DNA of 64,000 nucleotides from a bacterium (GTDB lineage Bacteria; Patescibacteriota; Patescibacteriia; SBBB01), in contig SBBB01000025.1 in the NCBI GenBank assembly GCA_005239895.1, positions 98,170 through 162,169 on the forward strand, written 5' to 3'. The position numbers and the translations under genes were made by a program. Below are positions 5,433 to 60,471 of the stretch, piece by piece. The notes below the pieces were generated by a model that was not told the origin of the DNA, did no database searches, and saw nothing but the letters and a program-made list of their open reading frames with translations. Every line of letters begins with the position of its first letter. The first letter of the stretch is position 1.

Positions 5433-5927
5433 ATGTCAATAGGAAAAATTTTTACTACCCACAAAAGAATTTACTACGATTATAATATTTTAGAAACTTT
5501 AAACGCCGGGATAGTATTAACAGGCCCGGAAGTTAAATCCGTCAAAAACGGACAGTGTAAACTTGACGGCTCTTATGCTATTTTAAAAATGACAAACTTA
5601 AAAAATAAATATAACACGGAACTTTTTCTTCTCAATGCTTATATTTCTCTTTATAAACCAGCTGGAGAATCAAAAAATTATGACCCCCAAAGAAGCCGCA
5701 AGTTATTATTAAATAAAAAGGAAATTAAAAATTTAAGCAATAAATTAATAAATAAACGCTTGACATTAATACCAATTAAGATGTATAATATGCATAATCG
5801 TGTCAAGGTTGAAATCGCCGTGTGTCAAATGAAAAAAAAGATTGACAAACGGCAATTAATCAAAAAACGAGAAATAAACCGAAAAATTCAAACTAATCTC
5901 CTGCAATCTCACAAGATTCGGGGATGA
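5433..5927 (+). CDS. smpB: SsrA-binding protein SmpB
   Basis: YYDYNILETLNAGIVLTGPEVKSVKNG matches the SmpB consensus, and tmRNA sits immediately downstream. Confidence 0.9.
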   Translation: MSIGKIFTTHKRIYYDYNILETLNAGIVLTGPEVKSVKNGQCKLDGSYAILKMTNLKNKYNTELFLLNAYISLYKPAGESKNYDPQRSRKLLLNKKEIKNLSNKLINKRLTLIPIKMYNMHNRVKVEIAVCQMKKKIDKRQLIKKREINRKIQTNLLQSHKIRG

Positions 5928-6335
5928 TCGGTATTGATAGTAAGTTTAATAGTAAGATTTGCAAGTTATGCTAAGCTCTTTAATGCATATAAAAATTTTA
6001 GGAGCAATCAATAAATGCAAAATCATTTATTAGCAAGGTTAGGTTGGCTTTAGATAACATCTTTAGCTCTCCCAGTTTTGCGCCTGTGGTAGCCTAACAA
6101 GACCACCACCGTCTATCTTTTTTTTCCTAAAAGAAAGAATAGATGTTATATCTTAGGATTATTCTATGATCATTGATTATTAGATCATAAAATAATGTTA
6201 CAATAATCAATAATTCTGGACGTTTCTTGTTCGAGTTCAGAATTTATTAAGGGTTCACCCAAAAAAATAAGATAAACTTGTAGACAGTCTAACTATTACT
6301 TATTAGACGCGGGTTCAATTCCCGCCATCTCCACC
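5920..6335 (+). ncRNA. ssrA: tmRNA (ssrA)
   Basis: The 5' end GGGGATGATCGGTATTGA resembles the tmRNA acceptor/D-like start. The 3' end GACGCGGGTTCAATTCCCGCCATCTCCACC is a tRNA-like T-arm plus acceptor that pairs with the 5' GGGGATG. Adjacent to smpB. A possible tag ORF (gca aaa tca...gta gcc taa) is uncertain. Confidence 0.75.
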
Positions 6336-6365
6336 TAATTAATTTGTTTAAATTTATTAAAATCC

Positions 6366-7666: not shown

Positions 7667-7717
7667 AGCGACTTAACCAATGTTTGGTGGTTCGACCGCC
7701 AAACATTAATTCTATAA
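7667..7717. repeat. Half MITE-TIR (CTGTCATTCCAGCGA) fused to hairpin-B copy AATGTTTGGTGGTTCGACCGCCAAACATT
   Basis: Direct sequence match to the TIR family and to the palindromes at 8641 and 21769. Confidence 0.5.
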
Positions 7718-8640: not shown

Positions 8641-8669
8641 AATGTTTGGTGGTTCGACCGCCAAACATT
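8641..8669. repeat. Hairpin-B palindrome AATGTTTGGTGGTTCGACCGCCAAACATT
   Basis: Identical to the copies at 7689 and 21769. Confidence 0.5.
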
Positions 8670-8693
8670 GGTTTTATAGTAAACTATAAAAAC

Positions 8694-9926
8694 CTACGAT
8701 TTTAATTTGTTAAATAATTTTTTAAAAGATTCGCCAATATTGATGTCAAAAATACTAGTAGTGTCGGATTTATTTAGTTTTAATAAATAATCAGCCCAAG
8801 ACATCAATCCAATAGCTGTCGTGGTTGAAATATCCAAAGAAGAATTAGCAAGAATGCCTGGATTTAAATAATTAACATTAATACTAGAAGATAACTTTAG
8901 TTTACTTTTAGCAAATTCAGTCAATCCACTCAATTTTGAACCGCCGCCCATAAAAATAATACCAGACGGAAGAGCCCCGGATTTATTTATTTTCCTTAAC
9001 TCTTTATCAATGTTGGCTAAAATTTCTTCAACTCTCGCCTCAATAATTTCTATCACATAACGTTTAGAAATTTTTTCCGTATCCAGCCCAAATAAACTTA
9101 AATTAATTTCTTCTTTTTTGTGTATATCTTTGCTTACGCAAGAGCCGTATTCTATTTTAATGCGTTCTGCAATATCAACTGAAACCCTTAAACCAATCGC
9201 AATATCACAAGTAATATGCTCAGAACCAATGGGTATAACAACTGTATGAATCACATTCCCCTCTTCTAAAACAATCAAACTGGTTGTAACACTTCCAATA
9301 TTTACTAAAGCCACTCCCAATTCTTTTTGTCTGGCCGTAAGAATATTTTCAGATACAGCCAAGGGTGAAAAAACTAAATCTAATATAGTTAAACCAGCTC
9401 TCTGTAAACATTTATTAACATTTTTAACGTGTATGGATGGTATTTGAATAACCTCGGCCTCAACTTCTAGTCTTAACCCAGTCATTCCCAAAGGATCTTT
9501 AATATTGGTTTGTTCGTCTACGGTAAAAACATGCGGCAAAATATGTAAAATTTCATAATTAGCCGGAGTGGCAATCATACGCGCTGCTTCTAAGGCTCGC
9601 GCTACATCGTCTTCTTGAATCTCACCATTGGTTTTAGCTACAGCTACAATACCCTTGCTAATTTGAGATCTAATATAAAACCCCGACACCCCAACTACAA
9701 CCTCTTTAATTGTCATTCCCGTAAGTCGTCTAGCCTGATCTAAACATTCGAGGAGACTCTTAACCACATCGTCAATACTAGTGATGTTTCCCTTATAAAT
9801 TCCAGATGACATTCGCTCAATAACCCCGATTAATTGAGTATTTTTATTTTTAAACGCCTTGCCTAAAGCCAAACGAACATTGTTTGATCCAATATCTAAC
9901 CCTGCGATAATATTTCCTTCAGCCAT
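8694..9926 (-). CDS. ftsA: Actin-like ATPase of the FtsA/PilM family (most likely cell division protein FtsA)
   Basis: IAGLDIGSNNVRLALGK phosphate-1 motif, 410 aa, sugar-kinase/actin fold pattern. No ftsZ is adjacent, so PilM cannot be excluded. Confidence 0.65.
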   Translation of the reverse strand: MAEGNIIAGLDIGSNNVRLALGKAFKNKNTQLIGVIERMSSGIYKGNITSIDDVVKSLLECLDQARRLTGMTIKEVVVGVSGFYIRSQISKGIVAVAKTNGEIQEDDVARALEAARMIATPANYEILHILPHVFTVDEQTNIKDPLGMTGLRLEVEAEVIQIPSIHVKNVNKCLQRAGLTILDLVFSPLAVSENILTARQKELGVALVNIGSVTTSLIVLEEGNVIHTVVIPIGSEHITCDIAIGLRVSVDIAERIKIEYGSCVSKDIHKKEEINLSLFGLDTEKISKRYVIEIIEARVEEILANIDKELRKINKSGALPSGIIFMGGGSKLSGLTEFAKSKLKLSSSINVNYLNPGILANSSLDISTTTAIGLMSWADYLLKLNKSDTTSIFDINIGESFKKLFNKLKS

Positions 9927-9960
9927 ATAAATATTGTTTTATATAAATTTTTTAGATTAA

Positions 9961-10362
9961 CTATTTAATTAACAATTGATTAGCTTGTTTATCCATTTCT
10001 TCCCGATCTTTATTGGTTTTATGATCATAGCCCAGAATATGCAACATGCCATGCACGAATAAAAATTCAATTTCAGCTTGAGTTGAATGATGATATAAAA
10101 TGGCTTGTCTCTTAGATTGTTGATAGTCTATAAAAATTTCTCCTAAATTATATTCCGGATATCCAAAACTTAAAACATCGGTAACCTTATCTTTTTTATT
10201 ATACAACATATTTAATTTTTTAATCAATCTATCGTTTGTTATTACGAGTACTAATTCTGAAAAACAAGAATCAAACTTAGCATCTATTTTTTTAACCAAT
10301 GTTTTTAGTCGCGCTAATTTTACTATATATTTAGTATCATTATGATACTCAAATTTTATCAT
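9961..10362 (-). CDS. ybeY: Endoribonuclease YbeY (rRNA maturation factor)
   Basis: HGMLHILGYDH zinc-binding H3xH5xH motif, 133 aa. Confidence 0.85.
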   Translation of the reverse strand: MIKFEYHNDTKYIVKLARLKTLVKKIDAKFDSCFSELVLVITNDRLIKKLNMLYNKKDKVTDVLSFGYPEYNLGEIFIDYQQSKRQAILYHHSTQAEIEFLFVHGMLHILGYDHKTNKDREEMDKQANQLLIK

Positions 10363-12185: not shown

Positions 12186-13643
12186 TTATTTACTATCATG
12201 CTGTGTTTCATAATGCGATCCGATTTCAAATAAAATAGTCTCACCAAACTGAGGGCCTATAAGTTGCAAACCAACGGGTAATTTTTTATTATCAACATCT
12301 ATAAAACCACACGGCATAGACATAGCTGGCAAACCAACAATATTTACAGCAACTGTAAAAATATCAGACAAATACATTGTCAAAGGATCATTTATTTTTT
12401 CTCCAATTTTAAAAGCTACGGTTGGACAAGTTGGAGTTAAAATACAATCCACAGTTTCAAATGCTTTATCAAAATCTTGCTTTAACAAGCTTCTAACTTT
12501 CTGAGCTTTTAAATAAAACGCGTCGTAATAACCAGCTGATAATATATAAGTTCCTAACATTATTCTGCGTTTTACTTCTGACCCCAAACCAATTTCACGC
12601 GACTGACAATATATATCATTAAAGCCTAAAGATTTACCATTAGCATCTGATCGTTTGGAATAACCATATCTTATTCCATCATACCTCGACATATTCGCGC
12701 TAACTTCAGCAGCTACAATAATATAATAAACTGCTAACGCATATTCAGTGTGCGGTAAATTAATTTTTTTTATATTATAACCTAATTTTTCAAATTCTTG
12801 AATAGCGTTACGAATTGTTTTATCCACAGTTGGATCCATACCATCTATAAAATACTCTTTAGGAATTCCAATTGTTAATTTGTTTTTTTTATTAACCGCA
12901 TTTAATCTTTCCGGAAAATCTAAACTGGTAGAATCGTGAGAATCTTTCCCCTTAATCGCTTGAAATATAATTTTAGAATCAGATACGGTTTTTGAAAATG
13001 GTCCAATTTGATCCAAAGAAGAACCCATGGCTATTAAACCATGTCGTGACACTGTTCCGTAAGTTGGTTTTAATCCAACTACTCCGCAAAATGCAGCGGG
13101 TTGCCTAATAGAGCCGCCTGTGTCTGACCCTAGAGCATATAAACACATATTACTACTCAAAGCCGCAGCTGACCCGCCCGAAGAACCACCCGGCACTCTT
13201 TCTAAGTCATGAGGATTATAAGTTTTTTGAAAAGAGGAATTTTCAGTTGAACCGCCCATAGCGAATTCATCCATGTTAGTTTTTCCCATCATTACATACC
13301 CTTCTTGTTTTAATTTAGTAATAACTGTAGCATCATAACTAGCAATATAATTTTCTAAAATTTGCGAGGCTGCGGTTGTTACGATTCCCTGCACCAAAAT
13401 ATTATCCTTAATTACAACTGGTATACCAGCTAATAAACCTATATTTTCATTAGCTTTAATTTTTTTATCAATCTCTTTGGCAGCAGCTTCGCCACTTTCG
13501 TAGGTTTTTAATAAAAAAGCATTAATTTTACTATTTGCATCTTCAATTTTTTTACGACAAGCTTCAAACAATTCTAGAGCTGAAAATTTCTTTTCTATTA
13601 AACCCTGATGAGCTTGCTTAATATTTAATTCATTTAATAACAT
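12186..13643 (-). CDS. gatA: Glutamyl-tRNA(Gln) amidotransferase subunit A
   Basis: Amidase signature GGSSGGSAAAL, 485 aa, GatA-like throughout. Confidence 0.9.
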   Translation of the reverse strand: MLLNELNIKQAHQGLIEKKFSALELFEACRKKIEDANSKINAFLLKTYESGEAAAKEIDKKIKANENIGLLAGIPVVIKDNILVQGIVTTAASQILENYIASYDATVITKLKQEGYVMMGKTNMDEFAMGGSTENSSFQKTYNPHDLERVPGGSSGGSAAALSSNMCLYALGSDTGGSIRQPAAFCGVVGLKPTYGTVSRHGLIAMGSSLDQIGPFSKTVSDSKIIFQAIKGKDSHDSTSLDFPERLNAVNKKNKLTIGIPKEYFIDGMDPTVDKTIRNAIQEFEKLGYNIKKINLPHTEYALAVYYIIVAAEVSANMSRYDGIRYGYSKRSDANGKSLGFNDIYCQSREIGLGSEVKRRIMLGTYILSAGYYDAFYLKAQKVRSLLKQDFDKAFETVDCILTPTCPTVAFKIGEKINDPLTMYLSDIFTVAVNIVGLPAMSMPCGFIDVDNKKLPVGLQLIGPQFGETILFEIGSHYETQHDSK

Positions 13644-13651: not shown

Positions 13652-13732
13652 TTAGCTTCTTAGCTTTTTAGCTTCTTAGCTTTTTAGCTTTTTAGCTTTT
13701 TAGCTTGTAGCTTATTAGATTTTTAAATTTTA
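13652..13732. repeat. Tandem array (TAGCTTYTT)n of about 9 units
   Basis: ttagcttct tagcttttt agcttct tagcttttt agcttttt agcttttt... read directly. It is the inverted partner of the array at 14603-14665. Confidence 0.7.
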
Positions 13733-13752
13733 ATTCAATAAACTTTATAATT

Positions 13753-14307
13753 TTATAAACTGTCTACTTTCTTGACGTGTGACTGAATATAAGCGTGCAC
13801 TAGCGCGCTAATTTTATTTGAAATAATTTGGGGATCTGCAACTTGCTCAAAAACAAAACGGTTTTTTTCAGCCGCGGTTTGAATATACACATTACCGTAA
13901 TTAAATATCGTTGGCAAAATGCCGTTTATTTCTATGGTTACATCTTGAACATTACGAAAAGATAGCTCAGATGTCACCCTAGAAAAAACACCGTTTTGTT
14001 CCGTGTTTACTATACGTTCATTAGTAATAATCCAAACATCTAAGTAATAATCTATGAAAGCATGATATGCAAATAAACACACATAAATATAATACAAGCT
14101 AATTAAAAAAGCAACCAAGGCATACACCTCATCCGAAATATTATCTATAAAAATATTAAAATATATAGCTAGGCCATATAGAGCCACTGGTCCGATTGCT
14201 AATAATATCCAAAAGGAAATATATCCCAAAAATATAAGCCAATGGCGACGAACAAGCAATATAATTTCTTCATTGGGATTTTTGTGAGGAATATAATGTT
14301 TTATCAT
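13753..14307 (-). CDS. Membrane protein with a bacterial PH-like (DUF304/YdbS-like) domain
   Basis: EEIILLVRRHWLIFL followed by two TM helices and a beta-rich tail, typical of the bPH_2 family. Confidence 0.5.
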   Translation of the reverse strand: MIKHYIPHKNPNEEIILLVRRHWLIFLGYISFWILLAIGPVALYGLAIYFNIFIDNISDEVYALVAFLISLYYIYVCLFAYHAFIDYYLDVWIITNERIVNTEQNGVFSRVTSELSFRNVQDVTIEINGILPTIFNYGNVYIQTAAEKNRFVFEQVADPQIISNKISALVHAYIQSHVKKVDSL

Positions 14308-14338
14308 ATGCCAAAGTTAAAAATTATAAAGCAGAAAG

Positions 14339-14542
14339 TTATAAAGTTGAAAAATCGCTAAATTTTTGAAATGACTGTTGTAAAATTAGCACAGAAATAA
14401 ATATATAAACTATAGTTACCCATATGGCCACTGCGCTATATTTACTAAATCTCATTAATTGAAATATATTAAACAGACTTAATAAACCCCATATACCCAA
14501 TAATCCCAAATAAATAATATAACCCAATGTTACAATAGTCAT
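14339..14542 (-). CDS. Small two-TM membrane protein
   Basis: 67-aa hydrophobic ORF co-oriented with the PH-like gene inside the repeat-flanked segment. Confidence 0.4.
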   Translation of the reverse strand: MTIVTLGYIIYLGLLGIWGLLSLFNIFQLMRFSKYSAVAIWVTIVYIFISVLILQQSFQKFSDFSTL

Positions 14543-14602
14543 ATAAAGTTAAAAAGTCTAAAGCTTGTAAAGTTGTAGAGTTTATTGAATTAAAATTTAA
14601 AA

Positions 14603-14665
14603 ATCTAAGAAGCTACAAGCTAAAAAGCTAAGAAGCTAAAAAGCTAAGAAGCCAAGAAGCTATTT
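14603..14665. repeat. Tandem array (AAAAAGCTAAGAAGCTA)n, reverse complement of the array at 13652-13732
   Basis: About 90% identical to the reverse complement of 13652-13732, including the shared start AAAAATCTAA.AAGCTACAAGCTAAAAAGCTA. Confidence 0.7.
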
Positions 14666-14823
14666 AACACTATACCAGAAAGATAAAAAATATTAAAGTC
14701 ATTACTATACTCTTGACCCTATAAAAATTTTTATTACACAAAATTTGTGTTCTAAAATTATTCACCCCGCCAAGTCATTAAGTTACAGACTGGCGGGGAC
14801 AATTGTTTTGATTGATAATCGAC

Positions 14824-14852
14824 TTGATTAAATTCTCTTAATCTGCTATAGT
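14824..14852 (+). promoter_or_regulatory. Sigma70-like promoter (TTGATT-17 bp-TATAGT) for the gene at 14927
   Basis: Near-consensus -35 and -10 hexamers with a 17-nt spacer. A GC hairpin CCCCGCCAAG...CTGGCGGGG lies upstream at 14765-14798. Confidence 0.5.
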
Positions 14853-14926
14853 AGGAATACAAAGTAACAACAAAAATTGTTTAACAACAAGCAAGAAATG
14901 CCTAATCAAACGGCAGAAAGGATGTC

Positions 14927-15412
14927 ATGAAAAAAATAGCGCAGCAGTTAGTTTTTGTTTTGTTTTTTGCAATACAAGCAACCGTCTTTGCATCAATACC
15001 AGTAGACACAGAACAACAAATCGCAGAAGAAGCGCCACCTGAAACAATATCTTGCAAGGAACAAGAATGTATTTTTGTAGGCGCTGAAATTGTCGGAAAG
15101 GGAGTTGTAAGTTTTAACTGGCACACCGGAAAACTATACGGTAGTTTTGAATGCAAATGGACAAAATGCTTTGTACCATTACTTCCAGGTACCACTCTAA
15201 CTCTTACAGCTATTCCATCGAATGCCCAATACTTTTTTGACGGGTGGTCACGTGATGGTTGCAAATTAAATGATCTTAATCAGTGTGTCATTACCATCAT
15301 TTTACAGTCTGGAGATAAAGATCAAGAAATCACGGCTCGCTTCATGCTAAGAAATCTTAATGAAGAACCTTCAAATGAGCCACCTCCACCCTACCCTACA
15401 GAAACGCCATAA
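14927..15412 (+). CDS. Secreted Cys-rich protein (signal peptide, Pro-rich C-terminus)
   Basis: N-terminal signal-like segment VFVLFFAIQATVFAS, 7 Cys, C-terminal EPPPPYPTETP. Confidence 0.55.
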   Translation: MKKIAQQLVFVLFFAIQATVFASIPVDTEQQIAEEAPPETISCKEQECIFVGAEIVGKGVVSFNWHTGKLYGSFECKWTKCFVPLLPGTTLTLTAIPSNAQYFFDGWSRDGCKLNDLNQCVITIILQSGDKDQEITARFMLRNLNEEPSNEPPPPYPTETP

Positions 15413-15874: not shown

Positions 15875-15899
15875 TACTTGGAAGTCCGACTTCCAAGTA
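15875..15899. repeat. REP-like hairpin TACTTGGAAGTCCGACTTCCAAGTA
   Basis: Perfect 10-bp arms with a 5-nt loop, the same family as 33065-33099 and 33520-33544. A GTAG motif is present on the minus strand. Confidence 0.55.
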
Positions 15900-21768: not shown

Positions 21769-21797
21769 ATGTTTGGTGGTTCGACCGCCAAACATTG
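21769..21797. repeat. Hairpin-B palindrome ATGTTTGGTGGTTCGACCGCCAAACAT
   Basis: Identical to the copies at 7689 and 8641. Confidence 0.5.
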
Positions 21798-21861
21798 AAC
21801 CTTAAAAAGTGCACCCCTTTTCTGTTTTATTAAAAAAGATTATGATATAAATGTTAAATTA

Positions 21862-21948: not shown

Positions 21949-22117
21949 AATTTTGCTTCTTTAATAACTACGCAAAATTAAGATGACGATGAAGATGAAG
22001 AAGCTAGATATTAGATGATATATTGCAAAACAAAATTTTCCCTCATCTTCACCCTCATCCTTTAAAATACTAATTACTTACACTAATTATAAAAAATAAT
22101 AATTCTTAAAAAAAATC

Positions 22118-22167
22118 AATGTTTGGGAGTTGAACTCCCAAACATTGATTACTCCCAAACATTGATT
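22118..22167. repeat. Hairpin-B variant CAATGTTTGGGAGTTGAACTCCCAAACATTG plus a partial duplication ACTCCCAAACATTGATT
   Basis: Outer stem conserved. The inner stem GGGAG/CTCCC co-varies relative to GGTGG/CCGCC in other copies. Confidence 0.5.
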
Positions 22168-25775: not shown

Positions 25776-25860
25776 TTCAACACCTGGCGGGATCACTATG
25801 TATTTAAAAAAATTATTTTTACCACCAATTCTTTGAAATCTAGCGTAATGTTTGAATATC

Positions 25861-25891
25861 TAATGTTTGGAGATCGGATCTCCAAACATTA
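25861..25891. repeat. Hairpin-B variant TAATGTTTGGAGATCGGATCTCCAAACATTA (plus a partial copy TAATGTTTG at 25846)
   Basis: Conserved outer stem; inner stem GGAGATC/GATCTCC co-varies. Confidence 0.5.
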
Positions 25892-25931
25892 AAATTTAAA
25901 ATATTTACTATTTTAACCATTAAAATAAAAA

Positions 25932-27367: not shown

Positions 27368-28108
27368 TTATAAACTCCCCATAAATACTTTTTCTAAAAT
27401 ATCATTTCCTAATAATTCTTGCGATGTTTTATGCACCACAATTTTTCCTTTGTCTAAAACATAAGCACGATTAGTAATTTCAAGCAAAGATTTAGTATTA
27501 TGTTCAACTACCATAATCGCAGTTTTATGTCTCTCGTTGATTTCTTTAATCTTTGCAAATACTTCTTTAACAATTTTTGGAGCTAGACCTAAAGATGGTT
27601 CATCCAAAAGCAAAACTTTAGGATCAGTCATGAGTCCTCTAGCCAAAGCTACCATTTGTTGTTGCCCACCTGACAATACCCCTGCTTTTTCTTTTCTCTT
27701 GGATTTCAACGCTGGAAAAGTATCCAAAACCTCAGTCATTTGTCTTTTAACTTTTTTAGAGTCTCTAAAAATATAACCGCCAATTTCTAAATTTTCTTCA
27801 ACAGTCATGCTACTAAAAACGCGTCTGCCTTGAGGTACAAAAACAATACCCATTTCAACTATTTCATAAGAAACTGGTTTTAATTCTCTTTCATGCCAAA
27901 ATACTTTACCTCCCTGAATGGGGGTTAAACCAAAAATAGTTTTTAACATTGTTGATTTACCAGCGCCATTAGGTCCCATTAAAGCAATAATTTCACCTTC
28001 ATCAATATCTATATCAACCCCATCTAAGGCCTTAACTCCACCATAATGAACGGAAATATTTTTTAATTGTAATAAAACTTCTTTGTTCATTTTTTTAATG
28101 TTATTCAC
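27368..28108 (-). CDS. livF: Branched-chain amino acid ABC transporter ATP-binding protein LivF
   Basis: GPNGAGKST Walker A, LSGGQQQM signature, LLLDEPSLGL Walker B. Part of the liv cluster. Confidence 0.85.
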   Translation of the reverse strand: MNNIKKMNKEVLLQLKNISVHYGGVKALDGVDIDIDEGEIIALMGPNGAGKSTMLKTIFGLTPIQGGKVFWHERELKPVSYEIVEMGIVFVPQGRRVFSSMTVEENLEIGGYIFRDSKKVKRQMTEVLDTFPALKSKRKEKAGVLSGGQQQMVALARGLMTDPKVLLLDEPSLGLAPKIVKEVFAKIKEINERHKTAIMVVEHNTKSLLEITNRAYVLDKGKIVVHKTSQELLGNDILEKVFMGSL

Positions 28109-28140
28109 TAGTCAAAACTCATTGTGTTTTATACTTAATT

Positions 28141-28330
28141 GTCATTCCCGCGAAGGCGGGAATCCAGGTTTATTCAAATATAAAAAATAAATAAAATTTA
28201 AACTTTTTTCAAAAAGTCCTCTATAAAAAAATAATTATTAGATTACAGTTGTAGTTTAATATTAATATTAATTGGTGCAATAATGATAAGTGTACATGCT
28301 TCTGGATTCCCGCCTTCGCGGGAATGACAA
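28141..28330. mobile_element. MITE-like element copy 2 (inverted orientation relative to copies 1 and 3)
   Basis: TIRs GTCATTCCCGCGAAGGCGGGAATCCAGG (28141-28168) and CTGGATTCCCGCCTTCGCGGGAATGAC (28302-28328). The internal sequence is the reverse complement of copy 1/3 internal sequence. Lies between livK and livF. Confidence 0.65.
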
Positions 28331-28396
28331 GGGTGGATGTAAATTCAAATTTATGTAATAATTCTTAATTCATAATTCATAATTCATAATTCTTTT

Positions 28397-29578
28397 TTAA
28401 TCTTCGTATTTAACAAACTTTCCATCCTTAACTGTTTTTAACATTATGGGTTTGTTAACATCACCATTCTTGTCAAAAGTAGTTAAACCACCCATTCCAG
28501 GATAATCTTTAACTACGTATAAATAATCTCTAATACAATCGGTTTTTTCCCCGCCGCACTTTTGAATAGCATCGCTAATCAACATAACAGCATCATAGGC
28601 ATTGGCCTCAAAAGCATCAGCATCTTTATTATATTTTATTTTATAAGTTTCGTTAAAAGCTTGAACCTTGGGATCATTTAAATCAAAAACCGGACTGCTA
28701 AAAATAACCCCCTCAGCAACTAAACCAATATCTAAAAATTCTTTAGTTCCAATAGCCGCACTGCCAGTGATTAAAGTTTCAGGAGCCAGTTCTTTAATTT
28801 GTTTTACTAAATTGCCAGCGTCTTTACCCAAAGCCACAGCTAGATAAAACGTTTTAGCGCCACTATTTTTGGCTTTTAAAATATCAGTTCTAAAATCAGA
28901 AGTATTTTCATCGTATTGATGATCCATGCTTATTTGACCACCTAATTTTTCAAATTCCTCTTTGAAAAATTTACTATAACTAATGGAGTTAGCTGATTTA
29001 GCAGTAAATAACGCAAGTTTATCAATGTTTTTATTTTTTAGAAATTTAGCCATTCCTTTTCCATGACTAACAGCGCTTTCTCTATTTCGAAAAACATAAT
29101 CACCAGCTTGAGAAATCTCGTCAGCCGCAGCAATAGGGGTAAATAAAATAACTTTACTTTGTTCAGTAATAGGGGCAATAGCTAAAACATCATTAGAACG
29201 AACTGGACCAATAACCACCTTAACTTTATCAATATCAACTAACTTTCTAGCGACTGAAACTGCTGAGTCTACCTCGCTTAAAGTATCTTCATAAACAACT
29301 TCCAATTTTAAGTTTCCCTGTTTATTAATTTTTTCTACAGCTAAATCTATACCATTTTTTAATCTTTCACCTAAAGAAGCGCCCTTGCCTGTAAAAGTTA
29401 AAGCCGCGCCAATTTTAATTGGCTCTTTAATTACCGGTTGATTTGTTTTAAATGTTTCTTTAACACTTGACTCATTTTTATTCATTCCATACCAAAACCC
29501 TAACATAACAATTAAAAATAAAACCACACCAATTATGATTTTTGTCCCATTAGAAGTTTTTGCGTCATTTGTATTCAT
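28397..29578 (-). CDS. livK: Branched-chain amino acid ABC transporter substrate-binding protein LivK/LivJ
   Basis: N-terminal TM/signal anchor, then a periplasmic-binding-protein type I fold pattern (IKIGAALTFTGKGASLG). Confidence 0.8.
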   Translation of the reverse strand: MNTNDAKTSNGTKIIIGVVLFLIVMLGFWYGMNKNESSVKETFKTNQPVIKEPIKIGAALTFTGKGASLGERLKNGIDLAVEKINKQGNLKLEVVYEDTLSEVDSAVSVARKLVDIDKVKVVIGPVRSNDVLAIAPITEQSKVILFTPIAAADEISQAGDYVFRNRESAVSHGKGMAKFLKNKNIDKLALFTAKSANSISYSKFFKEEFEKLGGQISMDHQYDENTSDFRTDILKAKNSGAKTFYLAVALGKDAGNLVKQIKELAPETLITGSAAIGTKEFLDIGLVAEGVIFSSPVFDLNDPKVQAFNETYKIKYNKDADAFEANAYDAVMLISDAIQKCGGEKTDCIRDYLYVVKDYPGMGGLTTFDKNGDVNKPIMLKTVKDGKFVKYED

Positions 29579-29793
29579 ACATTTTATGTTTAAAAATTAT
29601 TCTACTGCATACCACTGCATACCACGTTAGAGTATTAAAGACTTCTAACGGGGATCATATATTTTATAGTTGAAACTTAAATTATTACCATACTATAATC
29701 AGTATCTTATACAACTTTGGAAAATTTGTCTACTTAGTACTTTAAACATTTTCCGTAATTCTTATATCTTAAATCGTAAATCTTAAATCTATT

Positions 29794-30549
29794 TTACTCT
29801 CCTAAATACGCTTCAACTACTTCTCTTTTTGCTAAAACTTTATCAGGGGCACCTTCGGCTAATAACCTGCCTTCGTCCATAACAAAAATATAATCACAAA
29901 GTTCACGCATTAAACCCATATCGTGTTCAATTAAAATTACAGTTTTATTTTCTTTTTTAAATTCTTGAATAATATCCGCAAGCATTTTTTTCATTTCTGG
30001 AAAAAGTCCAGCAAAAGGTTCGTCTAATAAATAAATGTCGGCTTTCATGGCTAATATCCTAGCAATTTCCAAAAGCTTTCTTTGCCCGTAAGATAGATTA
30101 ATAACTAATTGATCTTTTTTGCTCCAAAGATTAATTTTATGCAAAACTTCTTCGGCAATTTTTAAATGATAAGTTGTGTGTTTTTCAAAAAGAGAACCAA
30201 AAATATTTCTTTCAGTTAAAACAACCAAAATATTATCCAACACGGTCATTTGTTCAAAAAGCCTAACATTTTGAAAGGTTCGCGTAATTCCGTAAAAAGA
30301 AATTTGGCGCGATAATATTTTATTAAATTTTTGAGCTTCATTAATTACCACTTCTCCAGCATCTATAGATAACATGCCACTCAATAAATTTATAAATGTA
30401 GTTTTCCCCGATCCATTTGGGCCTACTATACCAGTAATACTCCCCCTTTCTATGTTTATAGAAAGATGATCAACAGCGTGAACACCACCAAATTGTTTTA
30501 TTAAATTTTTAGTTTCAATAGCTAACATAAACAAGTTAAAAGTTCGCAA
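29794..30549 (-). CDS. livG: Branched-chain amino acid ABC transporter ATP-binding protein LivG
   Basis: LIKQFGGVHAV, GPNGSGKTT, LSYGQRKLLEIAR and LLDEPFAG motifs. Confidence 0.85.
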   Translation of the reverse strand: MRTFNLFMLAIETKNLIKQFGGVHAVDHLSINIERGSITGIVGPNGSGKTTFINLLSGMLSIDAGEVVINEAQKFNKILSRQISFYGITRTFQNVRLFEQMTVLDNILVVLTERNIFGSLFEKHTTYHLKIAEEVLHKINLWSKKDQLVINLSYGQRKLLEIARILAMKADIYLLDEPFAGLFPEMKKMLADIIQEFKKENKTVILIEHDMGLMRELCDYIFVMDEGRLLAEGAPDKVLAKREVVEAYLGE

Positions 30550-30582
30550 AGTTATAAAGTTCGTAAAATTTTAAAAAAATAG

Positions 30583-30867
30583 TTATTTTTCTAAAACAAA
30601 CCTTTCCACTAATTTGTCATTGAATTTTACTATAGAGAACCACTCATCAAGTGGCCTTGTAAATAATTCAGCGTCAGCATTTTGATAAAGCGGTTTATAC
30701 ACAACCATCCAAATATCATCATTAGAATGAATTGCAAGACCAACTACTTCATACTTGTCACCTTTATAATGAAGATATTTTTCGCCTTTCTTTGGTGTTC
30801 TTTCTGGCATTTTAGGTATCCATCCTTTTGTCATAATAAATATATTATCACAAACAAAACAATACAA
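30583..30867 (-). CDS. DUF1653-family small protein
   Basis: YLHYKGDKYEVVGLAIHSNDDIWMVVYKPLY...LFTRPLDEW matches the DUF1653 consensus. The true start may be an internal Met. Confidence 0.55.
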   Translation of the reverse strand: MYCFVCDNIFIMTKGWIPKMPERTPKKGEKYLHYKGDKYEVVGLAIHSNDDIWMVVYKPLYQNADAELFTRPLDEWFSIVKFNDKLVERFVLEK

Positions 30868-30873
30868 GAAGCA

Positions 30874-31824
30874 TTAAGAGCAAGACCGAGAAACTCCGTC
30901 TGCTAATCCTAGACATGTATTCATATTTTTATCAGAAAATTTTAAAGTCGAAATTTCTGGACTAGCCCGATGATTTAATACAGTTAAACCAGTATCAATT
31001 CGTATCTGATCTGGATATTTATAAGTTGTACTGTGTAGTTCATGACGCAAAACTTCTAAAGATAAATCGTTGTTATCACTATCAGTAATAGGAACAATAA
31101 GGAAGGGATGATCAAATGTTAAACGATTACCACCAAAACTACGCTCACTAAAAGCAATACCAATCGCAACCCTTATATTCTTCTGGGCAACTTCTTTTGC
31201 AAAATGAGACCTAGATATAATAAAACCCTGCGGTAATTGTTCAGTATTATTAAAACGACCTGTAGCATCATAATAAGCAACAAAGGCTCTATGAAAACCT
31301 TCTGGTCTTTGCATAGATAAATCCACTAAAGAATCTTTTTGCCAATCTATATGACCTAAATATTTAGTATTACAAATCTCGGCTAATTTTTTTGCCCATT
31401 CAATGGCGTAATAATCTGGAGGAAGAGATATATCAATTTTATCTTTATTTTTATTAATATAAACTGTGGCGCAACCACACTCTGCGTGACTATACACGCC
31501 TTTAATGTTTTTTCCTTTTAAAGCTTCTACCACTTGCTCTTGATGCAAAATACCAGATCCACCAATTCTAATACCACCACCAGATATACCTTCGTCAATA
31601 CAACGAACACAATTATCATTTTCTCTAAACATTGAATCTGTATTTATATTAGTATCTTCAATATATTTTTTAAAACCTTTTTCCCACAAAGACTTAAACT
31701 TATTTTTTTGTTCTTTCCAATATTCTTCAATATTAAAATGTTCTTCAGGCTCAGATAATTTATGCATATTTTTTATGTTTACAAATAATAATTTAAAAAC
31801 AATCAAAAAATAATACACCCACAC
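30874..31824 (-). CDS. Hypothetical Cys/His-containing protein (CxxC...HAECGC), function unknown
   Basis: 316-aa ORF with no recognisable family. The first 19 aa are possibly a spurious extension (internal MHKLSEPEE). Confidence 0.5.
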   Translation of the reverse strand: MWVYYFLIVFKLLFVNIKNMHKLSEPEEHFNIEEYWKEQKNKFKSLWEKGFKKYIEDTNINTDSMFRENDNCVRCIDEGISGGGIRIGGSGILHQEQVVEALKGKNIKGVYSHAECGCATVYINKNKDKIDISLPPDYYAIEWAKKLAEICNTKYLGHIDWQKDSLVDLSMQRPEGFHRAFVAYYDATGRFNNTEQLPQGFIISRSHFAKEVAQKNIRVAIGIAFSERSFGGNRLTFDHPFLIVPITDSDNNDLSLEVLRHELHSTTYKYPDQIRIDTGLTVLNHRASPEISTLKFSDKNMNTCLGLADGVSRSCS

Positions 31825-31974
31825 AATATAAGTGTCAAGTAAATTTATCTACCTAATATAACCTGTAAATTAAAAGAGCCCCTATGTTGCGATTGTAGGG
31901 GCTCACTATGTTAATGTTGCTTTTTTATAATGCGCATTTCGGTTAAAAAAACCAAAAAGCAGCAACTCTTCTAT

Positions 31975-32928: not shown

Positions 32929-33064
32929 GGTGGCCTCCTTTCGTGCGTCGGTTCTACTTAGAGCCATTGCCTAAGCTCTCTATAAATATAACATATTATT
33001 TAATTTTAACAAATTTTGTTGTTTTTCAAACAATTGCATTTTAAGTATATATAGAATAAACTAT

Positions 33065-33099
33065 GAAGCTACTTGGAAGTTTCGCTTCCAAGTAGCTTC
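33065..33099. repeat. REP-like hairpin GAAGCTACTTGGAAG-TTTCG-CTTCCAAGTAGCTTC overlapping the RayT stop codon
   Basis: Perfect 15-bp arms; contains GTAG; sits immediately 3' of the transposase gene. Confidence 0.6.
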
Positions 33100-33767
33100 T
33101 AATCGACTTCTAAAGCTTTTTTTCTAGACTGTGTGTCCTGCCAAGATTCTATAGCAAAGTCTAGATATATTTTTGGGTTTTTAAATTGATCTAATATAAT
33201 TTTTGTATCACATAAACCTTTCTCGTTTTTAATATATTCTTCTAAGCTAGATTTACTTAAACTAAGAATTTTATTTCCGGATTTATCTCGATTGTTCATA
33301 TTTATATAAGCGCTTAAATGAATCAGGTATCGATTATCAGATATATGTTTTGATTGAAAATTCCCCTGAAATAACACACCATTTCTTTTATATTTTTCAT
33401 TGAAATATTTAGTATAACCACCAATCCGTTGCATAAATTTTTCAATTCCTTTTTCTACAACAGGGGTGATAAGAAAATGAAAATGGTTTGGATTTATACA
33501 AAAAGCTATAATTGAAACCAACTTGGAAGTTTCGCTTCCAAGTTTTTCTTTGTCTTTTTTAAAAGAAAATTCATAAATACTCCCAATGGGTTCTAATCTA
33601 TTAAAATCTTTTATACTTTTTAACAAACGATCTAAATCAAATTTATCAAGAATTATTTTTCTTTTATCAACACCACGATTGTATATGTGATAATATTCTC
33701 CAATAATAAATTCATGTTTTCTAGTACTCATAAATAAATAATAACATATTTGGTTAATTAGTAACAA
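33099..33767 (-). CDS. IS200/IS605-like HUH Y1 transposase of the REP-associated (RayT-like) type
   Basis: YHIYNRGVDKRKIIL, HUH motif NHFHFLITP, and GVLFQGNFQSKHISDNRYLIHLSAYINMN (matching the G.LWQGR.KS...YL..RYIELNP pattern of RayT/TnpA-REP). The real start is probably the second Met (MSTRKHEF). Confidence 0.65.
   Translation of the reverse strand: MLLINQICYYLFMSTRKHEFIIGEYYHIYNRGVDKRKIILDKFDLDRLLKSIKDFNRLEPIGSIYEFSFKKDKEKLGSETSKLVSIIAFCINPNHFHFLITPVVEKGIEKFMQRIGGYTKYFNEKYKRNGVLFQGNFQSKHISDNRYLIHLSAYINMNNRDKSGNKILSLSKSSLEEYIKNEKGLCDTKIILDQFKNPKIYLDFAIESWQDTQSRKKALEVD
33520..33544. repeat. REP-like hairpin AACTTGGAAGTTTCGCTTCCAAGTT located inside the RayT coding sequence
   Basis: Encodes LGSETSKL in frame; same core as the 33065 and 15875 copies. 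Confidence 0.5.
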
Positions 33768-33813: not shown

Positions 33814-34698
33814 TTACAATTTATACTCCCCTATTAAGCCTTGCGGCCTATAAAGCATTAATAAAATTAAAATAACTCCATATACTACTTGCCTCATTTG
33901 AGCGGCTATGTCTGGTGGAAAACCAACAAAACGCAAAATTTCAGGCAATAATATTAAAAACAATGCTCCCAAAACTGCGCCACGCAAATTAGCTAGTCCT
34001 CCTAAAATAATAATAGCTAGAATAAATATGGATTCGTGTATAGTAAAACTAGTGGGGTCAATAAATGTAATATAAGAAGCGAAAAGCGAACCAGCGATGG
34101 ATGCCATAACAGCAGCCACAATAAAAATCATTAATTTAAAATATAAAACATTGTAACCAAAGACCTCTATGGCCTTTTCATCTTCTCTAATAGCTTTCAA
34201 AACCCTACCAAACGAAGAATTAATTATAAAATATGACAAATAATAAATTAAAATTAAAAACGCAAAAGTAAGAATTAAAAATGCGAAATTATTCGAAATT
34301 AAAAATTGGAAATTAAAAATTTTTATTTCCGGTCTAGCAATGCCTGGTATACCCAAAGGCCCTCTCGTAACACTTTGCCAATTTAATAAAATCGCAAAAA
34401 TAATAGTATTAAAACCCAAAGTGCCCAAAGCATAATAATCGCCTTTAAATTTTGATAATACTAAACCAATCAACAAACTAATAACAGCGGTTATAATCAT
34501 GCCCAATATAATTGAAACAAAAAATCCCAATTTAAATTGAGTTAATAAAATAGCGGTAGTATAAGCTCCAATACCATAAAAAGCAGCATGAGTTACAGAT
34601 AACAATCCAGTATAACCTACAACTAAATTTAAGCTAACCACAAGCATGGCGTAAATAGCGAACAAAATTGAGAGATGAACTAAGTATTCCATAAACAA
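33814..34698 (-). CDS. livM: Branched-chain amino acid ABC transporter permease LivM
   Basis: Polytopic permease with the LivM-type pattern GYTGLLSVTHAAFYGIGAYT. Confidence 0.8.
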   Translation of the reverse strand: MFMEYLVHLSILFAIYAMLVVSLNLVVGYTGLLSVTHAAFYGIGAYTTAILLTQFKLGFFVSIILGMIITAVISLLIGLVLSKFKGDYYALGTLGFNTIIFAILLNWQSVTRGPLGIPGIARPEIKIFNFQFLISNNFAFLILTFAFLILIYYLSYFIINSSFGRVLKAIREDEKAIEVFGYNVLYFKLMIFIVAAVMASIAGSLFASYITFIDPTSFTIHESIFILAIIILGGLANLRGAVLGALFLILLPEILRFVGFPPDIAAQMRQVVYGVILILLMLYRPQGLIGEYKL

Positions 34699-34700
34699 TA

Positions 34701-34842
34701 AAACCCTAAACTCTAAACACTAAATACTAAACACTAAACAAAATAATTATAACACAAACTTTATACTCTAAATCTACCACAAATTCCACTATAAGCAAAA
34801 GAATAAACCCTAAACTCTAAACAAACTTAAAAACTAAAATAC
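34701..34842. repeat. Two direct copies of AAACCCTAAACTCTAAACA, the first extended into a (ACTAAAY)n array
   Basis: 34701-34744 and 34805-34842 read directly. Inverted partner at 35211-35255. Confidence 0.6.
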
Positions 34843-35205
34843 TTACGATCTACATTTTTCTACTATAGAACCAAAAATCTTCATCAGCTCAGTAACTTCC
34901 TGAATCAACTCATCTTTCTCTCTATGTTGATCTAACTTAGGCTCACTTAAAACCAACCAATACCTACTTTCTTTAGCTTCTTTCCTAGATATTTTTATTC
35001 TCATAATAAAATCTTTTTTACTTAATGATTCTTCGACTTCAATATAATTAGCCCCCACTGATCCAGCCGATCTAACCAATTGCTTACCAATTTCAATATT
35101 AGATATAGTTTTGGATAAATTATTTACATAAACATTAGCTCTCTTAGCAAATTTAAGAGTTCTGTCCCCTAAGTCATATTGTTTTGTATTTTGAATTTTG
35201 ATCAT
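34843..35205 (-). CDS. Four-helix-bundle protein of the 23S rRNA intervening-sequence protein family
   Basis: RSAGSVGANYIEVEES...SRKEAKESRYWL matches the TIGR02436/PF05635 signature (GS..SI..NIAEG...E..YWL). Inserted between livH and livM. Confidence 0.65.
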   Translation of the reverse strand: MIKIQNTKQYDLGDRTLKFAKRANVYVNNLSKTISNIEIGKQLVRSAGSVGANYIEVEESLSKKDFIMRIKISRKEAKESRYWLVLSEPKLDQHREKDELIQEVTELMKIFGSIVEKCRS

Positions 35206-35210
35206 TTGAA

Positions 35211-35255
35211 TTTGTTTAGTGTTTAAAATTTAGTATTTAGTGTTTTATTTTCTAA
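35211..35255. repeat. (GTTTAGT)n array, reverse complement of the 34701-34744 array; overlaps the livH stop
   Basis: TTTGTTTAGTGTTTAAAATTTAGTATTTAGTGTTTT is the reverse complement of AAAACACTAAATACTAAATTTTAAACACTAAACAAA. Confidence 0.6.
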
Positions 35256-36117
35256 TGATTCCGGTCGGTCTGAATATCAAAAATAGTATTAATAATCCAA
35301 AAGCAATGGCATCTTTCCATTCTCCGGATATTTTCCAAATACCAAAATTTTCTACAAAACCTAAAATAAACGCGCCCAGCACACCACCAAAAATACTCCC
35401 AATTCCACCAACAATAGAAGCAATAACACCCTTAAGCAGCAATCCTAATCCCATAGTTGGTTCAATACCAGTATCAAAACCAACTAAAATACCAGTTAAT
35501 CCAGCAATAGCTGAACCTATAAAAAACACCACACTGATTATCTTGTTAGTATTAATGCCAACTATTTTGGCTACTTCTTCATCGTCAGTCACAGCTCTGA
35601 CAGCTTTACCAAATTTAGTTTTATAAAGAAACAAAATCAGTCCGCATGCAACTGCAATAGCAGATATTAAAATAATCAGTTGGGTTTGAGTTATTAAACC
35701 ACCGAAAATATTAAAAATTTTTGAAGTGTCAATGTTAAATGAAAGCGTTTGAAATTGACTTGTAAATAAAATAGCAATTATGGCTTGAATGGCTGTAAAA
35801 GTTCCCAATGAAGCTACTAATAAAACCATACTGGACGCTTTTCTTTTTCTAAGCGGTAAATAAATAATTTTATCTAAAGCATAACCAAATAAACCAGTAA
35901 TTATAATACCTAAAACAACAGCTAGATATAAATTTAAACCCAAGGTTTTAGTAAAATAAAAAACTGAATAGCCAGCTATAGTTGCCATTACTCCGTGCGC
36001 TAGGTTAAAAAATTTAGTAACTCCGTAAATTAAATTAAAACCCAGAGAAATTAAAGCATAAACTGCTCCGGCAATAAGACTATTTAAAACCAATTGAGAA
36101 AAAATAGACATAGACAA
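35245..36117 (-). CDS. livH: Branched-chain amino acid ABC transporter permease LivH
   Basis: LivH-like polytopic permease (LNSLIAGAVYALISLGFNLIYG...). Confidence 0.85.
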   Translation of the reverse strand: MSMSIFSQLVLNSLIAGAVYALISLGFNLIYGVTKFFNLAHGVMATIAGYSVFYFTKTLGLNLYLAVVLGIIITGLFGYALDKIIYLPLRKRKASSMVLLVASLGTFTAIQAIIAILFTSQFQTLSFNIDTSKIFNIFGGLITQTQLIILISAIAVACGLILFLYKTKFGKAVRAVTDDEEVAKIVGINTNKIISVVFFIGSAIAGLTGILVGFDTGIEPTMGLGLLLKGVIASIVGGIGSIFGGVLGAFILGFVENFGIWKISGEWKDAIAFGLLILFLIFRPTGIIRK

Positions 36118-36120
36118 AAG

Positions 36121-36180
36121 TTGAAAGTTAAAAGTTTAAAGTTAAAAAGTTAAAGATTAGAAAGTTAACCCATTTTTTGT
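36121..36180. repeat. (AAAGTTAA)n tandem array
   Basis: ttgaaagttaaaagtttaaagttaaaaagttaaagattagaaagttaacc. Inverted partner at 36275-36320. Confidence 0.55.
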
Positions 36181-36196
36181 CATTATTGTAATTTTC

Positions 36197-36245
36197 TGTC
36201 ATTCCCGCGAAGGCGGGAATCCAGGAGCGTATTCAACGTGTAACC
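36197..36245. mobile_element. Solo MITE end (TIR CTGTCATTCCCGCGAAGGCGGGAATCCAGGAGCGTA plus about 15 nt), no partner TIR
   Basis: Identical to the copy-1 left TIR through AGCGTAT, then diverges; no right TIR within 300 bp. Confidence 0.55.
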
Positions 36246-36274: not shown

Positions 36275-36320
36275 ACCTTATCAACTTTCAACTTTCTAAC
36301 TCTAAATCTAAATATATAAT
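36275..36320. repeat. (CAACTTT/CTAAAT)n array, inverted relative to 36121-36180
   Basis: atcaactttcaactttctaactctaaatctaaat. Confidence 0.45.
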
Positions 36321-36436
36321 ATAAACAAAAGAAAGTAAACGCAATTAACTATTGTTTTTATTTTAATTTTTGCTAATATAAGTGCAGTTACACAAGACAG
36401 GTTTAGTGTTAGTCAATCTATACTAATAAATGGAGG

Positions 36437-46691: not shown

Positions 46692-47126
46692 TTACAGGAT
46701 ACCTATTTCTCCTAATTTTTCAGCTGTTCTGTCCGTACTTTTTTCAGCTGAATTCCTGTAAGCAATCCATTTATCAGTGTCCCAAATCTCTAATCTATTA
46801 TAAACACCTGTGATGGTTACATCTTTTTGTAAACCAGCATAGGTCTTTAAATAATCAGGGACTAAAACTCTACCCAAGCCATCGGTCTCTACTTCTACGG
46901 CTCCGCTTAATATTAGTCTAACCAAACTACGTACTTCAGCCGTGCCTTGAGATAACTTGCTAAGTTTATCAGCCACTAAAGACCACTCTTGCTGAGAGTA
47001 TAAAAATAAACAGCTATCAAAACCTCTGGTCAAAACAACCTTGTCCCCAAGTTCTTTCCTTAATTTGGCTGGAACAGCTAAACGCTTTTTATTATCTAAA
47101 TTGTATTGATACTCGCCTATTAACAT
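46692..47126 (-). CDS. mraZ: Transcriptional regulator MraZ
   Basis: MLIGEYQYNLDNKKRLAVPAKLR and a second SpoVT/AbrB-like repeat. Confidence 0.9.
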   Translation of the reverse strand: MLIGEYQYNLDNKKRLAVPAKLRKELGDKVVLTRGFDSCLFLYSQQEWSLVADKLSKLSQGTAEVRSLVRLILSGAVEVETDGLGRVLVPDYLKTYAGLQKDVTITGVYNRLEIWDTDKWIAYRNSAEKSTDRTAEKLGEIGIL

Positions 47127-47137
47127 ATTTTTCTTGG

Positions 47138-58297: not shown

Positions 58298-58330
58298 AAA
58301 TTAGCTTTTAGCTTGCAGCTTGTAGCCGAT
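58298..58330. repeat. (TAGCTTTT/AGCTTG)n array
   Basis: ttagcttttagcttgcagcttgtagcc. Inverted partner at 60441-60471; same unit as the arrays at 13652 and 14603. Confidence 0.5.
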
Positions 58331-60440: not shown

Positions 60441-60471
60441 GCTAAAAGCTAAAAGCTACAAGCTAATTCTT
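60441..60471. repeat. (AAAAGCTA)n array, inverted relative to 58298-58330
   Basis: gggctaaaagctaaaagctacaagcta. Confidence 0.5.

Follow-up and report, generated by a model that had tools for sequence, protein, structure and literature searches.

Intervening sequence (IVS) elements, a peculiarity of ribosomal RNA (rRNA) genes, have been on record since 1990, and both their mobility and the role of their four-helix-bundle (4HB) protein are still unexplained. The IVS of Coxiella burnetii is a 428-nt element in the 23S rRNA, with an S23p open reading frame (ORF) in its loop and a terminal stem of 28 bp that RNase III cleaves; a varying number of tandem heptamers is located just upstream of the ORF start (PMC4990558). 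PF05635 ORFs have also been reported in insertions within the rRNA genes of bacteria belonging to the candidate phyla radiation (CPR) (PMC11270868). In this study we analysed a 64-kb stretch of contig SBBB01000025.1 (positions 98,170 to 162,169), hereafter the window, in which tandem arrays of short units face inverted copies of themselves at four places (instances 1 to 4). Comparison with other loci shows that instance 2, located between two branched-chain amino-acid permease genes of a liv operon, is a complete member of a widespread, mobile IVS-type cassette that is placed in the direction of transcription.

Instance 2 shares with the 23S rRNA IVSs of C. burnetii and Leptospira the ORF family (PF05635/TIGR02436), the position of this ORF in a loop that is closed by the pairing of complementary termini and the heptamers directly before the start codon, as well as a length of about 430–470 nt for elements of its type and a sporadic distribution suggesting horizontal transfer (PMC4990558). 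Unlike these IVSs, which occupy helix 9, 25 or 45 of the 23S rRNA, it lies between protein-coding operon genes (two PF02653 permeases), and instead of a 28-bp stem both arms consist of 4–6 heptamers (35–50 nt). Cutting by RNase III is presumed here from the likeness to the rRNA elements, and instance 1 carries unrelated cargo. Salmonella and other Enterobacteriaceae have IVSs that lack an ORF and form extended stem-loops processed by RNase III; these are matched by the cargo-less stem-loops of instance 3 and of three comparison loci from metagenomes (L019, L027 and L153; L-numbers denote such loci throughout, for example L009, L088 and L179), but the cargo-less pairs lie outside rRNA and their arms are tandem arrays.

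Inverted termini, small size, many contexts and a preference for intergenic sites are also typical of miniature inverted-repeat transposable elements (MITEs) and other non-autonomous elements with terminal inverted repeats. In contrast to MITEs, the cassettes are strongly biased in orientation and lack an observed target-site duplication, the array termini differ by subfamily, and the arms of instance 1 are not multi-copy in the window, where their unique segment occurs twice in 64 kb. The heptamers of heterocystous cyanobacteria known as short tandemly repeated repetitive (STRR) sequences reportedly form tandem arrays that are intergenic and occasionally inside genes (Mazel and co-workers, in 1990), with few fixed units genome-wide as opposed to the many units found here, and we know of no description of STRR arrays paired in inverted arrangement around genes. 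The RNase III stems flanking 16S and 23S rRNA likewise pair over a long range across a gene in the primary transcript, but the RNA enclosed here is protein-coding and the stems consist of short tandem units.

The window has a G+C content of 32% and its genes are mostly on the minus strand. The best matches of its GatA, bPH_2 and LivH proteins are Patescibacteria (CPR) metagenome bins, and the collections searched hold no close sequenced relative (top GatA match 62%, top non-self bPH_2 match 50%). A search against Rfam gave only the transfer-messenger RNA (tmRNA) and tRNAs at the gathering threshold, with no rRNA in the window, and no match up to E 1 in the cassettes of instances 1 and 2.

All four inverted pairs claimed in a first-pass annotation of the sequence were recovered at or near the positions reported there, using TRF and a repeat finder, and each of them outscored 500 of 500 local dinucleotide shuffles. 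When intergenic pairs were compared over the whole window, instances 1, 2 and 4 ranked above the 99th percentile of distant pairs; this level was passed by 4 of 96 near pairs, one of them a palindromic MITE, with 1 expected. Self-BLAST of the window returned instance 1 as the top pair (E 6e-35), and instance 2 also passed (E 4.5e-5). The annotation had excluded CRISPR, classical insertion sequence and integron architectures, and this is supported: the period is only 7–9 nt without spacers, compared to the 23–50-nt repeats and unique spacers of similar length in CRISPR, and, where an integron cassette has a single attC site at its 3′ end and depends on an intI integrase with attI, tandem arrays stand on both sides with no integrase among the annotated ORFs, which cover part of the window. 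Its description of the arrays as locus-specific, each with its own unit, does not hold as a rule. AGCT units recur at 13652, 14605, 58302 and 60441 (instances 1 and 4), AAAGTT-type units at six or more loci, among them 14313, 14544, 30533, 36116, 36281 and 47790, and TAAATCT-type units at 29756, 36295, 47756 and 60303.

A mobile IVS-type cassette in an operon junction

The liv cassette lies on the minus strand between livM (35245..36117) upstream and livH (33814..34698) downstream, both encoding branched-chain amino-acid permeases of PF02653. Its 5′ arm (35206..35255) overlaps the stop codon of livM and reads (ACTAAAY)n, extending to 12 nt before the ATG of the ORF, then AAACAAATTCAA and the ATG. 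The ORF (34843..35205) encodes a 4HB/23S rRNA intervening-sequence protein (PF05635, E 1.1e-12; TIGR02436, E 1.3e-18) and is the only 4HB gene in the window. A proximal 3′ arm (34800..34842, TTTGTTTAG AGTTTAG GGTTTAT) takes the canonical position 17 nt after the stop codon, and a distal copy, (GTTTAGN)n at 34699..34745, reaches the start codon of livH. The spacer between the two contains an extended −10-like box, TGTTATAAT (34746..34754, minus strand), whose function as a promoter is only putative. The arms at 34708–34742 and 35211–35245 are complementary over 35 nt at 89% (E 4.5e-5), and a direct copy is also present (34693–34731 and 34798–34838). Folding of the RNA predicts pairing of the arms in both the minimum free energy (MFE) and the centroid structure (−114.3 kcal/mol, z −1.75), with the distal 3′-arm copy as the partner of the 5′ arm.

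The two permease genes are 1 nt apart in four metagenome loci (L179, L180, L181 and L182; LivH 77% identical), and the 546 nt between them in the window are therefore an insertion. The same insertion was found in L088, with protein identities of 75, 87 and 84% for the three genes. The arms are kept there (38 nt, 82%), two arm positions being changed on both sides compared to the window, and the spacer beside them is unalignable save TGTTATAAT, which is identical in both. No target-site duplication was detected upon comparison of the occupied (window and L088) with the empty (L179, L180 and L182) junctions at this one site. A toxin–antitoxin insertion at the liv junction of L180/L181 was discarded as a counterpart; it has no arrays, which shows that insertions at such junctions are not all array-armed.

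A metagenome scan with the 4HB protein yielded 80 loci; with the window cassette and earlier loci added, the set comprises 82 cassettes from 66 flank clusters. The upstream gene has the orientation of the cassette in 66 of 76 cases (p 3e-11), as has the downstream gene in 60 of 72 (p 8e-9), and the modal gaps are about 40–50 nt upstream, roughly the arm length, and about 65–80 nt downstream, corresponding to an arm and a short spacer. The ORF is of about 120 aa (S23p/PF05635), and each arm comprises 4–6 heptamers. Nearly all cassettes show (AAAYNC[T/G])n-AAACAAAYYCAA-ATG on the 5′ side and TTTGTTT[A/C]G(NNTTT[A/C]G)n from 17–35 nt after the stop codon on the 3′ side, and the heptamers stand ahead of the ORF start in 53 cassettes as they do in the window. 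An arm inverted repeat scoring above all 100 shuffles was observed in 56 of 71 distinct cassettes (median 35 nt, 85% identity), although the proteins are only 60–79% identical. Other 4HB subfamilies use other units in the same layout, for example in L009, where the cassette lies between two tRNA genes, and in L013; related cassettes sit among assorted protein genes. Copies consisting of arms without cargo were found in L019, L027 and L153, and serial arms in L153 and L160, where host genes look bracketed merely because array-armed elements flank them.

The first-pass suggestion of a cassette-like mobile unit is thus confirmed for instance 2 by the existence of empty sites and by the occurrence of gene and arms in 66 unrelated contexts, and the further suggestion of an architecture specific to this lineage is not supported, as the architecture is common in metagenomes and agrees with the published IVS of Coxiella (PMC4990558). 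The identity of the 4HB protein across phyla was also considered as proof of transfer, but this was weakened by the finding that LivH is 74–85% identical across many CPR lineages as well; the argument for transfer therefore rests on the contexts and the empty sites. Instance 2 is a new member of a known element family in an unusual, new kind of site, an operon junction, and a limited literature search gave no description of this habit or of array-built double arms. The window and the 82 cassettes place the IVS element in ordinary operon junctions, in the direction of transcription and with heptamer-built arms, providing a large comparative basis for asking what arms and protein do.

The liv operon of the window (27368–36117) is broken at nearly every gene junction, compared to L179 and L182 in which the five genes are contiguous. 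The order on the minus strand is livM, the 4HB cassette, livH, a gene for a Y1 (IS200-like) transposase with about 3 kb of uncharacterised ORFs including one for a DUF1653 protein, livG, a 215-nt spacer with arrays, livJ, a MITE with an array, and livF.

Array pairs at the other three loci

Instance 1 brackets two genes on the minus strand upstream of gatA (12186..13643). The first cargo gene (14339..14542) encodes a 67-aa membrane protein with two transmembrane (TM) helices, which in relatives has an 80-aa counterpart directly upstream of bPH_2, and the second (13753..14307) a 184-aa membrane protein with a bPH_2 domain (PF03703; 329 homologues, best non-self 50%). The arms (13661–13770 and 14553–14662) are 110 nt long, 89% complementary and 782 nt apart, in agreement with the first-pass account of two small membrane-protein genes enclosed by inverted repeats of about 90% identity. 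In the sense of the cargo, the 5′ arm (14553..14662, minus strand) combines an array (14598–14662) with a unique segment, leaving about 10 nt to the ATG of the 67-aa ORF. The 3′ arm (13661..13770, minus strand), formed from the array (TAGCTTYT)n at 13652–13725 and a unique segment at 13718–13770, overlaps the last 6 codons of the 184-aa ORF, spans the entire spacer and stops 8 nt before the ATG of gatA, which follows directly downstream. The bracket, running from the start codon of the first gene to the end of the second, is as tight as in the 4HB cassette. Each arm is thus the 8-nt array followed by the unique segment, of which a 27-nt piece shows no difference between the two arms and is absent from the rest of the window. 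The arms differ by one 8-nt unit and have the order of unit variants in common, and therefore arose by inverted duplication of about 120 nt rather than by independent expansion. Both cargo genes follow similar (AACTTTN)n leaders (14308–14356 and 14543–14582) that end in TTTTTAACTTT a few nt before the ATG and are devoid of a Shine-Dalgarno sequence; a clear GGAGG is present at many of the window's other genes. AACTTT arrays resembling these leaders also stand before livM (36118–36170) and livG (30550–30582).

In nine of ten CPR relatives, gatC takes the place of the bracket before gatA, and no match to gatC at E below 1e-3 was found in the window. In three relatives (L083, L085 and L086; 45–48% identity), a small TM gene and bPH_2 directly succeed ruvB and an ordinary terminator closes the run, and the inverted repeat around the pair is absent there, with scores at shuffle level; ruvB of the window is about 6 kb from the bPH_2 pair. 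Gene order across these loci indicates that the pair has moved out of its usual ruvB operon into the usual place of gatC before gatA. No recombinase or invertase gene was seen beside instance 1, the neighbours being gatA, genes for a TSP3-repeat and an InlB-repeat protein, tRNA-Thr and L10/L7-L12, and a promoter/terminator scan around it stayed at shuffle level (10 promoter-like sites, 8.6 expected). The cargo, a bPH_2 protein and a small TM protein, lies outside PF05635. The predicted fold has the arms paired across 800 nt in both the MFE and the centroid structure (−260.5 kcal/mol, z −8.35), and at the RNA level instance 1 would act like instance 2, a predicted 110-bp duplex closing an 800-nt loop. 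In its layout, instance 1 is a variant of the IVS-type architecture with conserved host cargo, and a function of its bracket in RNA processing is putative. No locus near enough for scoring presence or absence of instance 1 in close relatives exists in the collections. Logan contigs of the source sample (SRR6943130) stop inside both arms; for practical purposes, arms of such arrays break short-read assemblies.

The arms of instance 3 are complementary over 34 nt at 79% and enclose no cargo gene; it is a cargo-less arm pair. The left arm, (AAAGTTR)n at 36116..36170, abuts the start codon of livM, and the right arm (36275..36325) reads (YAACTTT)n followed by (TCTAAA)n. Between them lies a solo MITE-family end (GTCATTCCCGCGAAGGCGGGAATCCAGG, 36196..36232), as the first-pass annotation had noted. 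Instance 4 is a weak case, in which 2.1 kb separate two AGCT arrays of 30 nt, with arms of 36 nt at 83%. Its left arm (58298..58330; AATTAGCTT-TAGCTT-CAGCTT-TAGCC) precedes the start of a permease gene on the minus strand by about 25 nt, and its right arm (60441..60471), complementary to the left, precedes that of a HIT gene on the plus strand by 13 nt, so that each array stands just upstream of an outward-facing gene. The interior holds tatD (minus strand), the L27 gene (plus strand) and a 197-aa ORF (plus strand); two hypothetical genes had been annotated here, and only this one hypothetical ORF of 60 aa or more was found. As the genes lie on both strands, one transcript cannot sensibly carry both arms, and rather than a unit, instance 4 probably represents a pair of short arrays that are related, or remnants of arms. 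No 4HB remnants were detected in instances 1, 3 and 4. A link with variable gene content is not supported for instances 1 and 4; their cargo consists of conserved genes, namely the bPH_2 pair with its 329 homologues, tatD and the L27 gene.

Arrays of this kind also form a background. Period-7 arrays of 4–5 copies, no two built from the same unit, abound in the Patescibacteria loci retrieved via GatA (the median over all scanned loci being zero), where they sit in other genes and spacers too, including coding regions. In six Patescibacteria genomes, in-frame and translated heptamer arrays (4–5 copies, differing units) were found inside gatA, in the same two variable loops (L027, 10731–10767 and 10979–11009; L009, 10712–10747 and 10980–11010; L016, 10730–10763; L018, 10728–10754; L019, 2548–2580; L081, 3971–3997). 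Being frequent in these loci and even in-frame inside gatA, the arrays are a common mutational product in Patescibacteria. Their characterisation as ubiquitous intergenic filler, which the first-pass annotation had named as part of a refutation of its proposal, thus applies to the slippage-type arrays as such, which are general in Patescibacteria loci, but not to the conserved arm pairs; what goes beyond this background is that a gene is enclosed by an inverted pair that is conserved. Literature searches on CPR heptamer arrays, including the in-frame gatA arrays, returned nothing specific. In L013 (5407–5442, 6003–6037 and 6064–6102), two pilin-like genes stand in tandem and have their prepilin leader peptide specified by the heptamer array (AAAACCT)n, and an inverted copy of the array lies 3′ of the stop codon of the first of these genes.

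Proposed pairing of the arms and competing explanations

We give about half of our confidence to the reading that the inverted arrays are the two complementary arms of IVS-type stem-loop brackets. Both arms on the transcript of the host operon would pair into a duplex of 35–45 bp and loop out the ORF, and RNase III may cut this duplex as it does in rRNA IVSs, which would free the cassette RNA and part the upstream from the downstream host message. Stop codons in the arms would end the interrupted upstream ORF at once, and the downstream start codon would follow only a few nt past the 3′ arm. Indeed, stops in all six frames were present in 6 of the 7 arms of at least 43 nt as defined in the first-pass annotation, compared to 20% of random 50-nt intergenic windows. 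Such pairing predicts RNase III ends inside the arms.

Pairing was counted on an anchored alignment of 53 cassettes. The paired cells amounted to 77.7% versus 74.4% in shuffles (0 of 500 reached the observed value) and 53% or less in slid controls, and 145 cells were changed on both sides versus 112 in shuffles (0 of 500); the column pair 43/73, for example, is UA in 26 cassettes, GC in 24 and unpaired in 1. Several observations weigh against an RNA stem. The shuffle control keeps relatedness, so the covariation may be inherited, and mismatches on the sense strand show no excess of G.U (49 G.U versus 78 A.C in 39 cassettes). The inner core AAACAAA/TTTGTTT is almost invariant instead of covarying, which would fit a sequence-specific protein site equally well. 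The fold of instance 2 is hardly better than that of its shuffles (7 of 100), and RNase III cutting is carried over by analogy from the rRNA IVSs; a motif search found no RNase III gene in the window, the 64 kb being part of the genome. Instance 1 is a single case, the arms of which have no further copy in the window, its cargo gives no sign of horizontal spread (best non-self homologue 50%), and T/C differences between its arms give A.C in the sense RNA. Instance 4 encloses genes on both strands. Instances 3 and 4 are short and fail E 0.05 in the window self-BLAST, which counts for a neutral origin.

Because of the missing G.U excess, the A.C mismatches of instance 1 and the invariant core, a role of the heptamers in DNA is a live rival, albeit a rather unlikely one: the arms would be terminal inverted repeats made of heptamer protein sites, recognised by a transposase or recombinase acting in trans or by the 4HB protein, and would serve mobility or regulation. 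The 66 contexts of the cassette, the use of the same unit type (CTAAA or CGAAA) on both arms, the arms-only copies and the serial arms of L153 and L160 would all suit such sites, as would the Y1 (IS200-like) transposase gene (33099..33767) located 50 nt downstream of livH. Y1 transposases use subterminal hairpins and not long inverted repeats, the cassette itself encodes no transposase, the liv junction has no target-site duplication, and the strong co-orientation with host genes is unexpected for a plain transposon with terminal inverted repeats, which argues against this explanation together with arm sequences that are wholly different among 4HB subfamilies. Unlikely to a somewhat greater degree is a neutral by-product, in which slippage creates the arrays, template switching or rearrangement their inverted copies, and the pairs, especially instances 1, 3 and 4, have no function. 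The period-7 arrays of many Patescibacteria loci, in-frame in gatA at two loops in 6 loci, the recurrence of the same unit families across the window and the lack of an RNA-compatible bias in the arm differences of instance 1 are in line with this origin, which is plausible for instances 3 and 4. It does not account for the arms conserved in 56 of 71 cassettes despite 60–79% protein identity, for the arms that the window and L088 keep while the adjoining spacer is unalignable, or for the local clustering of same-family arrays, of which three of three such pairs are inverted.

Recombination and transcription have also been weighed as functions of the arms, and we hold both to be very improbable. 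Homologous recombination between the arms of instance 1 (110 nt, 89% identical, with a perfect block of about 30 nt) might flip the two genes and switch their expression, and the Logan assembly of the source sample indeed breaks in both arms. The tandem arrays by themselves account for such breaks, the annotated neighbours include no gene for an invertase or recombinase, and 87% of the 4HB cassettes are co-oriented with their hosts, so that arms of such design do not flip often. Alternatively, each array could be an outward-facing leader or promoter module belonging to the gene that it precedes, the inverted look being due to diverging flanking genes. Each of the four AGCT-type arrays points toward a gene (gatA, that at 14927, the permease at 58277 or the HIT gene at 60479) and shows (AAGCTAMA)n on its coding strand, instances 1, 3 and 4 straddle strand-switch points, and the distal arm of instance 2 has the conserved TGTTATAAT before it. 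The number of promoter-like sites does not exceed that of shuffles, though (10 versus 8.6 expected), the right arm of instance 1 is 265 nt from the gene at 14927, both genes flanking instance 2 are on one strand, and the 27-nt unique segment common to the arms of instance 1 points to duplication and not convergence.

An extension of the stem-loop bracket to host genes in general seems unlikely to us. Array-built arms would then serve Patescibacteria, and uncultivated phyla besides, as a general bracket that is portable and turns the enclosed gene into a self-contained module, fit for a tight operon junction and cut out of the transcript. Instance 1 would represent host genes captured and relocated by a gene-cassette system with neither integrase nor transposase, and the scattered heptamer arrays, including the in-frame ones of gatA, could be its raw material or scars. 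If the architecture does carry host genes, as instance 1 suggests, it would give CPR bacteria, whose genomes are very compact, a new way of relocating genes.

Other repeats and features of the window

The MITE family with ends GTCATTCCCGCGAAGGCGGGAATCCAGG has a full copy at 28139–28330 and copies or solo ends at 2276–2452, 36196–36232 and 40100–40317. Its core fits the Neisseria dRS3 pattern ATTCCC(N8)GGGAAT, and the copy at about 40289–40308 (ATTCCCGCCTGCGCGGGAAT) is an exact fit to the dRS3 type targeted by Nf1 (PMC3898611). A second small palindromic element, AATGTTTGGTGGTTCGACCGCCAAACATT, occurs in at least five intergenic copies (7679–7716, 8641–8678, 21769–21808, 22114–22150 and 25847–25905). 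The Y1 transposase gene (33099..33767) gives a weak match to the tyrosine transposases associated with repetitive extragenic palindromic (REP) sequences, and a REP-like hairpin, AGCTACTTGGAAG-N5-CTTCCAAGTAGCTT (33065–33099), lies directly 3′ of its stop codon; a similar hairpin is present at 15875–15899 near tRNA-Thr. In L003, the closest GatA relative (62%), a hairpin element with a 52-nt inverted repeat (9793–9980) is found within the gatC–gatA junction, and L005 contains a related sequence (14809–14953).

Upstream of mraZ (46692..47126, minus strand), repeated AAAGTGG/AAAGTGT boxes (TTATCCAC-like, 47127–47200) resemble what we take to be the MraZ operator, and given this resemblance a reading of 47127–47413 as DnaA boxes or an origin was dropped. 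The tmRNA gene (5920–6336) encodes an unusually long tag peptide, AKSFISKVRLALDNIFSSPSFAPVVA.

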